Positions 3,120 through 29,073 of a stretch of DNA of 64,000 bases are shown in pieces. The position numbers were made by a program, and so were the translations under genes. Numbering within the stretch: the stretch's first letter is position 1; the number at the start of each line of letters is the position of its first letter. Location of the stretch: sequence record NC_054924.1; one strand, given 5' to 3'. Source of the stretch: Escherichia phage vB_EcoM_Lutter. Under the pieces are notes generated by a model, which worked only from the letters and a program-made list of their open reading frames with translations, was not told where the DNA came from and ran no database searches.

Positions 3120-5099
3120 ATGACTTTATTATCTCCGGGCATTGAGCTCAAAGAAACTACGGTTCAAAGCACCGTGGTTAATAACTCTACTGGTACAGCA
3201 GCTCTGGCCGGTAAATTCCAGTGGGGTCCTGCTTTTCAAATTAAACAGGTTACAAATGAAGTAGATTTAGTTAATACTTTTGGTCAACCTACAGCTGAAA
3301 CTGCTGACTATTTTATGTCTGCAATGAATTTCTTACAATACGGAAATGATTTGCGAGTTGTGCGTGCTGTCGATAGAGATACCGCTAAAAACTCATCTCC
3401 GATTGCCGGTAATATTGAATACACTATTTCTACCCCAGGTAGTAACTACGCGGTTGGAGATAAAATCACGGTTAAGTATGTTTCAGAAGACATTGAAACA
3501 GAATGTAAAGTTACCGAAGTAGATGCTGATGGAAAAATTAAGAAAATTAATATTCCTACTGCAAAAATTATCGCTAAAGCGAAAGAAGTCGGTGAATATC
3601 CAACATTAGGTTCTAACTGGACCGCGGAAATTTCTTCGTCTTCCTCTGGTTTAGCTGCAGTAATAACTCTTGGAAAAATTATTACTGATTCTGGTATTTT
3701 ATTAGCTGAAATTGAAAATGCTGAAGCTGCCATGACAGCTGTTGACTTTCAAGCAAATCTCGAAAAATATGGAATTCCAGGAGTAGTAGCTCTTTATCCA
3801 GGCGAATTAGGCGATAAAATTGAAATTGAAATCGTATCTAAAGCTGACTACGCAAAAGGAGCTTCTGCATTACTCCCAATTTATCCAGGTGGTGGTACTC
3901 GTGCATCTACTGCTAAAGCAGTGTTTGGATATGGACCACAAACTGATTCACAGTATGCTATTATAGTTCGTCGTAATGATGCTATTGTTCAAAGCGTTGT
4001 TCTTTCAACGAAGCGTGGTGAAAAAGATATTTACGATAGTAACATCTATATTGATGACTTTTTCGCAAAAGGTGGTTCAGAATATATTTTCGCAACTGCA
4101 CAAAACTGGCCAGAAGGCTTCTCTGGAATTTTAACTCTGTCTGGTGGTTTATCATCAAATGCTGAAGTAACAGCAGGAGATTTGATGGAAGCTTGGGACT
4201 TCTTTGCTGACCGCGAATCTGTTGATGTTCAGTTGTTTATTGCGGGTTCTTGTGCCGGTGAATCTTTAGAAACAGCATCTACTGTCCAAAAACACGTCGT
4301 TTCAATTGGGGATGCTCGCCAGGATTGCTTAGTACTGTGCTCACCACCGCGTGAAACTGTAGTTGGAATTCCTGTAACTCGTGCAGTAGATAATTTAGTT
4401 AACTGGAGAACTGCGGCAGGTTCATACACTGATAATAACTTTAATATCAGTTCAACCTACGCAGCAATTGATGGTAACTACAAGTATCAGTATGACAAAT
4501 ATAATGATGTGAATCGTTGGGTTCCATTAGCAGCTGATATTGCTGGTTTATGCGCAAGAACCGATAACGTATCTCAGACTTGGATGTCTCCAGCTGGTTA
4601 TAATCGTGGCCAGATTCTTAACGTTATTAAACTGGCTATTGAAACTCGCCAGGCTCAGCGCGACCGTTTATACCAAGAAGCTATCAACCCGGTAACTGGT
4701 ACAGGTGGTGATGGTTACGTATTGTATGGTGATAAAACAGCTACTTCTGTTCCTTCTCCATTTGATCGTATTAACGTTCGTCGTCTGTTTAATATGTTGA
4801 AAACGAACATCGGACGTAGTTCAAAATATCGTTTGTTCGAATTAAACAACGCGTTTACTCGTTCATCATTCCGCACAGAAACTGCCCAGTACTTACAGGG
4901 AATTAAAGCTCTCGGTGGAATTTATGAATATCGTGTAGTTTGCGATACAACAAATAACACTCCGTCAGTAATTGATAGAAATGAGTTTGTTGCAACATTC
5001 TACATCCAACCGGCTAGAAGCATTAACTACATTACCTTAAACTTCGTAGCAACTGCTACTGGTGCAGATTTCGATGAGTTAACTGGTCTTGCAGGTTAA
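3120..5099 (+). CDS. 18: Tail sheath protein gp18
   Basis: 659 aa; sequence recognised as T4 gp18; SD GAGG upstream. Confidence 0.97.
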   Translation: MTLLSPGIELKETTVQSTVVNNSTGTAALAGKFQWGPAFQIKQVTNEVDLVNTFGQPTAETADYFMSAMNFLQYGNDLRVVRAVDRDTAKNSSPIAGNIEYTISTPGSNYAVGDKITVKYVSEDIETECKVTEVDADGKIKKINIPTAKIIAKAKEVGEYPTLGSNWTAEISSSSSGLAAVITLGKIITDSGILLAEIENAEAAMTAVDFQANLEKYGIPGVVALYPGELGDKIEIEIVSKADYAKGASALLPIYPGGGTRASTAKAVFGYGPQTDSQYAIIVRRNDAIVQSVVLSTKRGEKDIYDSNIYIDDFFAKGGSEYIFATAQNWPEGFSGILTLSGGLSSNAEVTAGDLMEAWDFFADRESVDVQLFIAGSCAGESLETASTVQKHVVSIGDARQDCLVLCSPPRETVVGIPVTRAVDNLVNWRTAAGSYTDNNFNISSTYAAIDGNYKYQYDKYNDVNRWVPLAADIAGLCARTDNVSQTWMSPAGYNRGQILNVIKLAIETRQAQRDRLYQEAINPVTGTGGDGYVLYGDKTATSVPSPFDRINVRRLFNMLKTNIGRSSKYRLFELNNAFTRSSFRTETAQYLQGIKALGGIYEYRVVCDTTNNTPSVIDRNEFVATFYIQPARSINYITLNFVATATGADFDELTGLAG

Positions 5100-5115
5100 T
5101 ACGGTGCATTCTAAA

Positions 5116-5133
5116 GGCCTGTTTCGGCAGGCC
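5116..5133 (+). terminator. GC hairpin downstream of gene 18 (possible attenuator)
   Basis: GGCCTG-tttcgg-CAGGCC inverted repeat directly after gene 18 stop; no clean U tract. Confidence 0.35.
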
Positions 5134-5134
5134 A

Positions 5135-5142
5135 TATAAATA
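5135..5142 (+). promoter_or_regulatory. Late promoter TATAAATA (gene 19, distal)
   Basis: Exact TATAAATA in the 18-19 intergenic region. Confidence 0.5.
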
Positions 5143-5193
5143 CACTATATCCTTAATTCTTTAATTCTATATGCCCTAGGTTAAACATAGGGA

Positions 5194-5201
5194 TATAAAT
5201 A
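5194..5201 (+). promoter_or_regulatory. Late promoter TATAAATA (gene 19, proximal)
   Basis: Exact TATAAATA 15 nt upstream of the gene 19 ATG. Confidence 0.55.
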
Positions 5202-5215
5202 CTACAGAGGCTAAT

Positions 5216-5707
5216 ATGTTTGTAGATGATGTAACACGAGCGTTTGAATCTGGTGATTTTGCTCGACCTAACTTATTCCAAGTAGAAATTTCTTATCTTG
5301 GACAAAATTTTACGTTCCAATGTAAAGCTACTGCTTTACCAGCTGGTATTGTAGAAAAAATTCCAGTCGGATTTATGAACCGTAAAATTAACGTAGCAGG
5401 CGATCGTACATTCGATGACTGGACTGTTACAGTAATGAACGATGAAGCTCATGATGCTCGCCAGAAGTTCGTTGATTGGCAAAGCATTGCTGCGGGACAA
5501 GGAAACGAAATTACTGGTGGAAAACCTGCAGAGTATAAAAAGAGCGCTATCGTTCGTCAATATGCTCGTGACGCTAAAACAGTAACAAAAGAAATTGAAA
5601 TTAAAGGTCTGTGGCCTACTAACGTGGGTGAACTTCAATTAGATTGGGATTCAAACAATGAAATCCAAACCTTTGAAGTAACTCTTGCTCTCGATTATTG
5701 GGAATAA
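5216..5707 (+). CDS. 19: Tail tube protein gp19
   Basis: 163 aa; position and sequence as T4 gp19. Confidence 0.95.
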   Translation: MFVDDVTRAFESGDFARPNLFQVEISYLGQNFTFQCKATALPAGIVEKIPVGFMNRKINVAGDRTFDDWTVTVMNDEAHDARQKFVDWQSIAAGQGNEITGGKPAEYKKSAIVRQYARDAKTVTKEIEIKGLWPTNVGELQLDWDSNNEIQTFEVTLALDYWE

Positions 5708-5739
5708 AATGAATGGGGAGAAATCCCCATCCTGCTTAA

Positions 5740-7364
<1,625 letters not shown>

Positions 7365-25998: not shown

Positions 25999-26002
25999 CA
26001 AC

Positions 26003-26032
26003 GGGGACCTTTCGGTCCCCATATTTTTATTT
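26003..26032. terminator. Bidirectional terminator after gene 54 and after minus-strand ORF 26027..26317
   Basis: GGGGACC-tttc-GGTCCCC hairpin followed by ATATTTTTATTT. Confidence 0.7.
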
Positions 26033-26317
26033 GCGGAATGAAATGAAAGCAGAAACTGAAGCAACTAAACTGTCTTCAATATAAACTTCAATTTTTACCG
26101 GAGCTTCTGACTCAAATTTACCTGTTACTACACCCTGAAAAATACTTTCAGTCTGTTCTGGCTTTGAAAAATTTTCAGAAGGAAAAATTCCGAACTTTTT
26201 ATCTGTTCCGAAAATTTTGATAAATTCATCATAAACTGCTTCGTTAAAAGCATTATCAGCAGGAATAACGCCTTCAACTACAAGTTCTTGACCTAAAAAG
26301 CGTAAAGAAGATTTCAT
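26027..26317 (-). CDS. Hypothetical protein (alt.-x position)
   Basis: 96 aa ORF, ATG with GAGGA SD 7 nt upstream, driven by the early promoter at 26349..26378. Confidence 0.55.
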   Translation of the reverse strand: MKSSLRFLGQELVVEGVIPADNAFNEAVYDEFIKIFGTDKKFGIFPSENFSKPEQTESIFQGVVTGKFESEAPVKIEVYIEDSLVASVSAFISFRK

Positions 26318-26324
26318 TTTGTGT

Positions 26325-26378
26325 TCCTCATGTTATGTCAGTAAGACTACTATAACACAACACGAGGGACTTGTAAAC
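26325..26378 (-). repeat. 54-nt early-promoter cassette, copy 1 (identical to 40602..40655)
   Basis: Exact 54/54 identity including -35 GTTTAC, -10 TATAGT, 5' UTR and GAGGA SD. Confidence 0.8.
26349..26378 (-). promoter_or_regulatory. T4-type early (sigma70-like) promoter
   Basis: Minus strand GTTTAC, 18 nt spacer, TATAGT; upstream of ORF 26027..26317. Confidence 0.6.
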
Positions 26379-26735
26379 TACATTTTGAACTTTTTAGTAC
26401 GCGTAATAGGCATGCGTCAATTTTATACTGTTTCATTGTTTGAAGAGCAGTATCAAAAACAGCATTAATGACGCCAATTGGATTTCCACCCAAGTTTTTA
26501 AGTTTAACTAATGATAGTTTCTCATTAACACCTATCATTACGATATGCATCATTTTGTCGCCTGGTTTAACGTTTTATCTGTATCACCGCCAGAGGTGTA
26601 TGTACAAAATCTAAATCCAGGAAGCACGCTTTCTTCGCCGGCTTGAATAGCAAAAATTTGTGGTATTTTATGCTTAGGATTTAAGTTAACAACCGGCGCC
26701 GAAGCGCCGTCAAATAATTATGTAATAAGTTCCAT
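26350..26735 (-). pseudogene. Degenerate paralog of the Alt N-terminal region (about 128 codons)
   Basis: Translation MELIT*LFDGASAPVVNLNPKHKIPQIF...GFRFCTYTSGGDT then, after a frameshift, MMHIVMIGVN...QTMKQYKIDACLLRVLKS parallels Alt residues 2-130; in-frame TAA at codon 6; about 70 percent nt identity to 28450..28835. Confidence 0.55.
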
Positions 26736-26738
26736 GAT

Positions 26739-28835
26739 TTATCCTTGAACGAACTTGTAAGGCATGTTTGCAATATCTATGCAAGACGCAATAATTCCAA
26801 GAGATGATTCTACTTTCTGTTTAACATTTGATGAAACAAATGATGCAAAGTCAACTCTGTCTTCTATTTCAATATCACCTGTCATTGCAACCAATTCACC
26901 AGTTTCCATTAAATGGTCTCCATCATAGATTACCGATTCGGTGAGCTCTTCCGTGGTCATAACTTCAGCTTGAATGAGTTTTGTATTATTAGATGTTGTT
27001 CCGTCATTATTAGAAGCATCAGTTATTTTATTAACTTTGACCATCAATCCACGCGGTAGAATAACTTCAGCTTCTGTTGCTATTCCGAGACTTCCTGGAT
27101 ATACAACATTAACTTTATGAGCTCCATCAATTGCCCATCCTATTTGAACTTTAACGTATTCAGGATTTTCTTTATACGCTCTTATTTCGTTTGGATTAAT
27201 AGTTATTCCTTCTTCATTTTTATCAACTGTTAATTCATTGCGAGCTTCTGGTTCTAAAAGACCAATACCAGCATGTGTAATTCCAAAACGTCCAAAAATG
27301 ATAGGAGTTAAAGAAGTAGATACAAAATTTCTGAAATAGAATACTTTATTTTTAACTAGTGCTTCGTATATAGGAGCAGTCATACTTTGAGCACGATAAA
27401 CTGTAATGCCTTCTGGTATACGATCACCATTTTCAAAAGCAGAATCTAAATTAGTTATAGCAGCTTCAATTTCTTTTTCACTCATTACTTCATAACGTTC
27501 TGGATCATAACGACCCAAAAGAAGATTATTGATGTCAGTATATCCTGAACCGCAATACTCTCTAATGCCACGCTTTTGTGATGGAGTATATTTAGAACCA
27601 TCACGGGCAATAGTAATATCAATCATTGGACCTGCACCAATTCCAGAGAAACTATAAATCATTCTTTTGAGGAATTTAGTTTTTGTCGCGTTCCAGGAAT
27701 TTTTAGTTATTTCTTCCCAGACTTCATCTGGCTGTCCTTTACGGGTTTTATTATGTTTATCAAGCCAAGTATCTTTATATTCTTCAAATAATTGATTAAC
27801 AGCTGCTGCGTATTTCTCTAAACATTTTATTGAAGTAGTCGGTTCATTTTTAATCGCATTAAGAATTACATCTTTAATTTTTTCAGAAACTTCATTAACC
27901 TCACTTTTTGAAAAGAATTTATAGTCATAATGAAGTTCATCTGCAGTTCCTTCGGCAATGATTTTTGCTGCCTTAGTTTTAGAAGCTAATGAATTAATTC
28001 CAATTTTCATTTCTTCTGCTTCGGGAATTAAAGGTGCAGTAGCTGGTTTATTAAAATTAGCTGCTGTAGATTCATACTTCTGGAATAATTCACTTTCAAA
28101 TCTAGAAGACTCTAATGATTGACTTTGTGCAATTGCTCTACGGGAAATTTTAACTTTAACGATTACAGCTTGGTCAGAACGTTTATCATTTTCTTGTGCA
28201 ATAGATGCTGCAATTGCCTCATTTTTAGTTACTTGAGCTCCAGTATCTTTATTGATATAAACATCACCGACCTTCGATTCAACTTTAGTAAAGAGCTCAG
28301 TACTAATTTCCGGAACCCCTGGAATGTCTTCTAGTGATACATTTTTGCGATGTATAAGAATATATGCATACTTTTTATCATAATCCCAGAGTTCCTTAAG
28401 AAGGACGTATCTGCCACCTGAACGACTACGGATAAGTCTATCAGCAATAACTTGAATTTGTCGAGCTTGACCAGCAGTTTTAGACTTAAGAATACGGAGC
28501 ATACAGGCATCAATTTTATACTGACGCATTGTTTGCATTGCAACAGTAAAAACCGAATTGATATAATTAATTGGGCTTGGACCAAGACCTTTCAATTTAG
28601 CAATTGAACCTTTAGCGGTTAATGTAAAAGGAACAATATGCATCATTTTATCGCCCATCTTTAAATCGCGATTAGTATCACCTCCAGATGTATAGGTACA
28701 TAAACGAAAACCTGGTTGTTCAATTGCGTCATCAACATGAACTGAAAAAATTTGTGGTATTTTCTTCTTTGGATTTAAGTTTGTAATTGGAAGAGTAGTA
28801 TCTTCGTCAAATAATTCTGTAATTAGTTCCATCAT
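26739..28835 (-). CDS. alt: Alt, head-packaged mono-ADP-ribosyltransferase
   Basis: 698 aa; N-terminal region and ART-like C-terminal half as in T4 Alt; late promoter upstream. Confidence 0.9.
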   Translation of the reverse strand: MMELITELFDEDTTLPITNLNPKKKIPQIFSVHVDDAIEQPGFRLCTYTSGGDTNRDLKMGDKMMHIVPFTLTAKGSIAKLKGLGPSPINYINSVFTVAMQTMRQYKIDACMLRILKSKTAGQARQIQVIADRLIRSRSGGRYVLLKELWDYDKKYAYILIHRKNVSLEDIPGVPEISTELFTKVESKVGDVYINKDTGAQVTKNEAIAASIAQENDKRSDQAVIVKVKISRRAIAQSQSLESSRFESELFQKYESTAANFNKPATAPLIPEAEEMKIGINSLASKTKAAKIIAEGTADELHYDYKFFSKSEVNEVSEKIKDVILNAIKNEPTTSIKCLEKYAAAVNQLFEEYKDTWLDKHNKTRKGQPDEVWEEITKNSWNATKTKFLKRMIYSFSGIGAGPMIDITIARDGSKYTPSQKRGIREYCGSGYTDINNLLLGRYDPERYEVMSEKEIEAAITNLDSAFENGDRIPEGITVYRAQSMTAPIYEALVKNKVFYFRNFVSTSLTPIIFGRFGITHAGIGLLEPEARNELTVDKNEEGITINPNEIRAYKENPEYVKVQIGWAIDGAHKVNVVYPGSLGIATEAEVILPRGLMVKVNKITDASNNDGTTSNNTKLIQAEVMTTEELTESVIYDGDHLMETGELVAMTGDIEIEDRVDFASFVSSNVKQKVESSLGIIASCIDIANMPYKFVQG

Positions 28836-28863: not shown

Positions 28864-28869
28864 AAATTA

Positions 28870-28885
28870 AAGGCCCGAAGGCCTT
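28870..28885 (-). terminator. Hairpin terminator between ORF 28885..29073 and alt
   Basis: AAGGCC-cgaa-GGCCTT hairpin with T-rich minus-strand tail. Confidence 0.55.
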
Positions 28886-29073
28886 TAGTAATCTAGTGGT
28901 AAGAGAGTACGATATATTTCAAACTTTGGTCCTTTTTCATAGGCATCAAATGTTTCTGTAAATTTATTATAAGCGTATGCATCTACAAATTCGAGAATGA
29001 CTTGTGATACAGAAGTAGAAACATCTCCACCTTCTTTTTGAGCAATGACAATTGTTTCTAAGTAAGCTTTCAT
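28885..29073 (-). CDS. Hypothetical small protein
   Basis: 62 aa ORF, start overlaps ligase stop. Confidence 0.5.
   Translation of the reverse strand: MKAYLETIVIAQKEGGDVSTSVSQVILEFVDAYAYNKFTETFDAYEKGPKFEIYRTLLPLDY

Follow-up and report, generated by a model that had tools for sequence, protein, structure and literature searches.

The window, a stretch of 64,000 nucleotides from Escherichia phage vB_EcoM_Lutter (NC_054924.1), belongs to a Tequatrovirus that is closely related to T4. On its minus strand the genes follow the order DNA ligase (gene 30), alt.1, alt, a gene remnant (26350-26735) and alt.-3; genes 54 and 48 lie on the plus strand and converge with the alt.-3 side. A 901-nt query across the remnant region matched 501 phage records at at least 90% identity, the best match being Escherichia phage vB_EcoM_FJ1 (99.3%). 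The features of the locus are these:

26739-28835, minus strand: alt, encoding an intact Alt ADP-ribosyltransferase (ORF list; Pfam PF03496 over residues 379-628, E=1.9e-36; PHROG 802, E=7e-273)
26389-26735, minus strand: remnant of a second Alt paralog, ancestral codons 1-116, corresponding to T4 alt.-1 plus most of alt.-2 (homology)
26718-26720, minus strand: TAA in place of GAA (Glu6), a premature stop at codon 6, absent in T4
26695-26708, minus strand: GGCGC-UUCG-GCGCC hairpin, which codes for GASAP in intact paralogs (sequence)
26573-26576, minus strand: A-run of A4 instead of A5, the frameshift that divides alt.-1 from alt.-2 (alignment)
26350-26553, minus strand: 67-aa ORF, MMHIV...QTMKQYKIDAC..., ortholog of T4 alt.-2, PHROG 15247 (ORF list, PHROG)
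26389-26397, minus strand: deletion junction, sole surviving copy of the 9-bp direct repeat CTAAAAAGT (comparison with RB14; invariant in 19 remnant genomes)
26378-26395, minus strand: last five codons (KKFKM) and TAG stop of the ancestral paralog, now out of frame in the 67-aa ORF (3' end of RB14 alt.-2)
26349-26378, minus strand: putative sigma-70/T4-early-type promoter of alt.-3, GTTTACA, 17 nt, TGtTATAGT (promoter scan, 10/12 matches, extended TG)
26027-26317, minus strand: alt.-3, 96 aa, DUF5498, the next intact gene (Pfam DUF5498, E=5e-64; protein of the T4 counterpart detected early)

Counted from its first ATG, alt encodes 698 aa. Two adjacent ATGs stand at its start (28830-28835, minus strand), the first of which gives MMELITE. 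The true start is likely the second, at 28832, which yields 697 aa and is favored because of the Shine-Dalgarno spacing and the T4 and RB14 annotations. T4 Alt has 682 aa, so the length of the protein varies between close relatives. Upstream, a terminator-like hairpin followed by a U-run (AAAGGCC-UUCG-GGCCUUU; 28868-28887, minus strand) lies between alt.1 and alt; like the hairpin in the remnant, it has a UUCG tetraloop. At the other end of the locus, a bidirectional terminator-like hairpin (GGGGACC-TTTC-GGTCCCC; 26001-26022, both strands) lies between the converging alt.-3 and 54, and its counterpart is annotated as a terminator in e11/2, G8 and fPS-2. Spontaneous C-terminal extensions of T4 Alt.-3 (to 110 or 117 aa) allow escape from the CmdTAC ADP-ribosyltransferase defence (PMC11618068); the alt.-3 of the window has the wild-type length, unlike these extended forms.

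The remnant begins with a minus-strand ATG at 26735-26733, 3 nt past the alt stop and with an AAGGA Shine-Dalgarno sequence upstream. The original prediction held that this sequence parallels Alt from residue 2 to about residue 130 at roughly 70% nucleotide identity. Global alignment with alt gave 240 identical nucleotides out of 359 (67%), and the local alignment score was 113 compared to 19.7 +/- 2.3 for shuffled sequence. The similarity is thus significant. Once the stop and the frameshift were mended, the translation matched Alt residues 2-118 of the window at 62% amino acid identity (BLASTP, E=2e-48) and positions 2-120 of PHROG 802, Alt-like ADP-ribosyltransferase (E=6e-50). Hence the claimed homology holds, but it ends near residue 118. 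The repaired 128 aa had no match to any Pfam family, and no ADP-ribosyltransferase (ART) catalytic domain (R / S-T-S / E-x-E motifs) was found in it.

Two lesions deprive the remnant of a continuous reading frame, and both had been predicted. The opening codons are ATG GAA CTT ATT ACA TAA, so that translation reads MELIT, stop, LFDGASAPVVNLNPKHKIPQIFAIQAGEESVLPGFRFCTYTSGGDTDK...; the in-frame TAA at codon 6 occupies 26720-26718. The frameshift before the MMHIV segment is a 1-nt deletion in the A-run at 26576-26573, where alignment shows A5 and one continuous frame in fPS-2, N2, FL23, EC128 and RB14. Beyond it, the second half does survive as an open frame of 67 aa, as had been proposed. Its first residue is ancestral residue 62; residues 1-55 are Alt-derived, and the last 12 codons (SKCSLQVPRVVL) consist of the out-of-frame end of the paralog plus the promoter region of alt.-3. 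Its tryptic peptides include LSLVK and NLGGNPIGVINAVFDTALQTMK. The ATG of this ORF is preceded by a weak AGG only, and the alt.-1 frame ends at a TGA that overlaps it. In T4, this ATGA arrangement is a stop-start coupling able to feed ribosomes into the 67-aa ORF; because of the codon-6 TAA, the coupling is lost here.

Could the frame be restored during expression? Read-through of the TAA and slippage on the A-run were both rejected on general grounds: transcriptional slippage needs a run longer than A4, and T4 is not known to have an ochre suppressor. Three plus-strand ORFs across the region (26319-26468, 26468-26614 and 26545-26646) were without support.

A tblastn search with the repaired 128-aa sequence as the query revealed a much longer form of the gene. 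In most Tequatroviruses the match covered residues 1-116 only and lay at the start of a long gene. The RB14 version, annotated "alt.-2", encodes 685 aa, lies directly between alt and alt.-3 (4501-6558 of the RB14 segment) and has a PF03496 ADP-ribosyltransferase domain; it is 42% identical to the Alt of the window over the full 685 aa, including the YR.Q, FVSTS and EAEVILPRG motifs. The whole paralog is kept in RB14, RB32, T2, T6 and about 400 other Tequatrovirus records, where it is annotated variously as alt.-2, alt.-1 or Alt-like ADP-ribosyltransferase.

The window aligned to RB14 as two blocks (RB14 4436-4848 and 6539-6936). The first, which comprises the 3' end of alt and codons 1-116 of alt.-2, was 95.9% identical, a value that also holds for the remnant against those 116 codons; the second, which comprises the last 20 nt of alt.-2, the spacer and alt.-3, was 97.0% identical. 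Within the window, BLAST assigned 9 nt to both blocks. In RB14, CTAAAAAGT is found at both edges of the 1.69-kb segment that the window lacks, and this segment is where residues 117 to about 680, and with them the PF03496 catalytic domain, are encoded. Two copies of a repeat in the long form against one in the window are the signature of deletion between short direct repeats. Codon 116 is joined out of frame to KKFKM and its stop, so the remnant frame passes the old TAG (26380-26378), runs nine codons further and ends at a TAG within the next promoter. Judged from these alignments, the remnant is the stump of a full-length paralog and not a duplication of the N terminus only. The original prediction of a decayed tandem paralog of alt was therefore correct at its core, as the T4 annotators had also written, but the origin is a full-length gene rather than an N-terminal copy.

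We asked how widespread the two forms are. At least 80% of the deleted segment was present in 402 phage records, and the contiguous remnant was present in 89. The long form is thus four to five times commoner than the remnant, and T4 and the window represent the minority state. Allele-specific 55-mers placed the codon-6 TAA in 43 phage records and the GAA form in 450. With about 402 genes intact, the 43 TAA records imply that roughly half of the remnants have the stop. Sequencing error was ruled out, since 43 independent records share the TAA and 89 share the deletion.

An exact scan of IMG/VR with a 25-mer containing the hairpin returned 3 contigs only, and GenBank phage records were sampled one by one instead. 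The sample comprised the window and 18 other genomes, mostly best matches to the window and hence biased toward its close relatives. All 19 share the junction, later lesions differ among them, and all four combinations of the two main lesions occur:

Uninterrupted 128-codon ORF: N2, FL23
TAA at codon 6 only: fPS-2, EC128
1-nt A-run deletion only: T4, e11/2, G8, VEc20, EL, Pu-Krd-SF5, one IMG/VR contig
Both lesions: the window, FJ1, JEP6, BYEP01, F26, SP21535, HY03, F1

Private lesions were seen as well: HY03 has an extra 7-bp tandem duplication (AGAAACT) within the 67-aa ORF, and F1 has an extra 9-bp in-frame deletion in the stump.

We then polarized substitutions against eight intact paralogs (RB14, T2, RB32, CrRp10, GADU22, UFV11, IME340 and one IMG/VR contig). 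Remnant-only variants comprised 13 non-synonymous and 5 synonymous changes, compared to 4 and 29, respectively, among the variants seen in intact paralogs (first 116 codons). The two classes differ (Fisher p=2.5e-5), and the remnant-only ratio does not depart from 3.6:1, the site ratio expected under neutrality (p=0.57); the test covers 18 remnant-only changes and 8 intact references, and wider sampling of intact genes might show that some "remnant-only" variants occur there too. This pattern indicates that the stump evolves as a pseudogene, while purifying selection acts strongly on the intact paralog.

The 3' end of the remnant runs into the predicted alt.-3 promoter. The promoter scan called TTTACA, 17 nt and TATAGT with an upstream TG at 26377-26349 (minus strand), and a G at 26378, read from the sequence, lengthens the -35 box to GTTTACA. 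GTTTAC is the form that the -35 box takes in T4 early promoters. From its position and sequence, the promoter would drive alt.-3; the same predicted promoter also lies downstream of the RB14 full-length paralog. The stop codon of the 67-aa ORF sits within the predicted -10 box, so the tail of that ORF is promoter sequence and not protein-coding. The intact gene beyond it, alt.-3, is what requires this end of the remnant to be preserved. Time-resolved omics of T4 (PMC9697503, Table S2) class the alt.-1 and alt.-2 transcripts as "middle" and list their proteins as NA, i.e., not detected. In the intensity table of the same study, Alt.-1 (P39495) is zero in 24 of 24 samples and Alt.-2 (P39494) is missing between its list neighbors, though shotgun proteomics easily misses small proteins. 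Alt.-3 (P39493) is abundant from early times, and alt.-3 RNA is classed as "early" (PMC9697503). An early-type promoter fits this difference between alt.-3 and the stump.

It had also been suggested that a surviving fragment could still be packaged, on the premise that the Alt N terminus serves head targeting and protease processing. Processing stands: the gp21 prohead protease removes a short N-terminal propeptide of Alt, plus a C-terminal one (PMC9026906). As for head targeting, the one capsid-targeting sequence demonstrated so far is that of IPIII (its first 10 residues, in the propeptide), and not one of Alt. The packaging proposal itself is unsupported. The 67-aa ORF starts at ancestral residue 62, and the stop and the frameshift cut it off from the MELIT(E) segment, so that a translated product would have neither propeptide nor gp21 site; the propeptide-bearing piece is cut to a pentapeptide by the TAA in the window; and T4 proteomics, which covered infected cells and so bears indirectly on virions, found neither Alt.-1 nor Alt.-2. 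We see no basis on which to expect packaging of the 67-aa ORF.

We conclude, with a probability of about 0.86, that the remnant, which corresponds in the window to T4 alt.-1/alt.-2, is a pseudogene stump without function and has drifted neutrally since the deletion. This reading is carried by the homology to Alt and the junction left by the deletion, by how the lesions are distributed, and by the neutral pattern of substitution. The ancestral Tequatrovirus would have had two full-length Alt-type ADP-ribosyltransferase genes in tandem: alt, and a paralog of 685 aa that shares about 42% identity with it. In one lineage, codons 117 to about 680, the whole catalytic domain included, would then have been lost in a single event, either illegitimate recombination or replication slippage between the two 9-bp repeats. 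Codon 116 thereby came to adjoin the last five codons in the wrong frame, and the resulting ORF of 128 codons ended inside the alt.-3 promoter. Unconstrained drift would have followed, producing in different phages the GAA-to-TAA change at codon 6, the 1-nt loss from A5, the 7-bp duplication and the 9-bp deletion; the window has the first two of these. The stump would still be transcribed as the tail of the alt message, and nothing in it would be needed. Only the last 30 bp or so, with the putative alt.-3 promoter, and the gene beyond would be functional. In the window's own phage the stump probably yields no product.

Might the 67-aa ORF, or the intact 128-aa fragment elsewhere, instead be a functional small protein that binds the prohead core or Alt, is packaged, or modulates Alt? 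Among the 19 sampled remnants, 18 keep the 67-aa ORF open, N2 and FL23 retain the uninterrupted 128-aa ORF including the MELITE propeptide, and alt.-1/alt.-2 RNA is present in T4. However, the propeptide-bearing part stops at codon 6 in the window, the 67-aa ORF has only the weak AGG now that its ATGA coupling to a translated upstream ORF is gone, and its last 12 residues are promoter read-through. The HY03 duplication breaks it, both remnant-only changes that fall within it are non-synonymous, and neither protein was detected in T4. We regard such a function as unlikely. A more specific version, in which the fragment still works as an adaptor or decoy, entering the prohead or titrating Alt partners, and the catalytic loss in the T4 lineage was selected, e.g., as an escape from a defence that senses a second ADP-ribosyltransferase, strikes us as distinctly improbable.

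A role in RNA or in cis is very doubtful, though rated slightly above the decoy. Here the stump would be kept because its hairpin stabilizes the 3' end of alt mRNA or because it serves as a spacer isolating the alt.-3 promoter. The GGCGC-UUCG-GCGCC hairpin is invariant in the window, T4, fPS-2, RB14 and all other sequences examined, a consensus promoter lies at the 3' end of the stump, and five of the seven terminator-like matches are on the other strand or elsewhere. Yet the hairpin, which in intact paralogs simply codes for GASAP, lacks a U-tract, and the fold of the whole region is unexceptional (z = -1.19); we rejected the hairpin both as a terminator and as a stabilizer. The Alt-homologous part does not include the promoter, which full-length paralogs equally have downstream of them, and the body of the stump tolerates indels. 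To the remaining alternative, an in situ partial duplication of the start of alt with the full-length genes elsewhere being later insertions, we give almost no credence. The wording of the T4 and RB32 GenBank notes favors it, the latter recording an "apparent insertion in alt.-2; similar to alt". But the supposed insert carries Alt homology through the ART domain to the C terminus (42% over 685 aa), the remnant keeps, in another frame, the final five codons of the long form with their stop, the 9-bp repeat flanking those codons bears the deletion signature described above, and the long form is the commoner one. The junction with its repeat and the codons kept from the long form contradict this alternative.

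The remnant as such is not new. It is already known as T4 alt.-1/alt.-2, and its reading as a decayed paralog is already on record. The T4 RefSeq note describes the pair as [quoted passage not shown], Nolan et al. (2006; PMC1524935) list them among paralogous duplications of adjacent genes, and the record of the Yersinia phage fPS-2 reads "similar to N-terminal of ... Alt; putative pseudogene". What is added here is the full-length origin, a single repeat-mediated deletion of 1.69 kb and the independent neutral lesions that followed. T4 alt.-1/alt.-2 would accordingly be read as a neutrally decaying deletion stump and not as genes. This matters for annotation pipelines, many of which name the 67-aa ORF "RNA polymerase ADP-ribosyltransferase". 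Records of JEP6, SG1, F26, VEc20, SP21535 and other phages call it "RNA polymerase-ADP-ribosyltransferase" or "NAD(+)--arginine ADP-ribosyltransferase"; with no catalytic domain present, these names are annotation-propagation errors. It also matters for studies of ART redundancy in T-even phages: most T4 relatives have two full-length packaged-type Alt ADP-ribosyltransferases in tandem, and the second appears to have remained uncharacterized because T4 has none. The overall significance is small. The result is a tidy, unsurprising confirmation of a textbook-genome annotation, and its modest added value is evolutionary.

In gene order the window agrees with T4: the remnant follows the alt stop and precedes alt.-3, all on one strand. 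In the comparison proposed earlier, the remnant occupied the same position as T4 alt.-1 (61 aa, NP_049810; PHROG 23015) and alt.-2 (67 aa, NP_049809; PHROG 15247) at about 97% nucleotide identity, a figure that is the mean column identity of an alignment of the window, T4 and fPS-2. The deletion junction, the A-run frameshift and the length of the 67-aa ORF are alike in both. The window differs in the GAA-to-TAA change, which reduces alt.-1 to five codons and leaves neither an open 61-aa ORF nor the ATGA coupling. The full-length paralog of RB14, RB32, T2, T6 and about 400 records is 96% identical to the window in the DNA of codons 1-116 and is flanked in the same way, by the alt stop 3 nt before it and by the alt.-3 promoter and then alt.-3 itself after it. 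To the Alt of T4-type phages, a packaged NAD+:arginine ADP-ribosyltransferase, the remnant is similar over the first 117 residues (62% amino acid identity, the MELITE N terminus included); unlike Alt, it is without a catalytic domain, a continuous frame or evidence of a product. Tandem duplication of alt is likewise described for RB49ORF183c, 44RRORF188c (partial) and 44RRORF187c (full-length) (Nolan et al. 2006; PMC1524935), alt-adjacent paralogs from distant genera that are likened to the remnant by description only.
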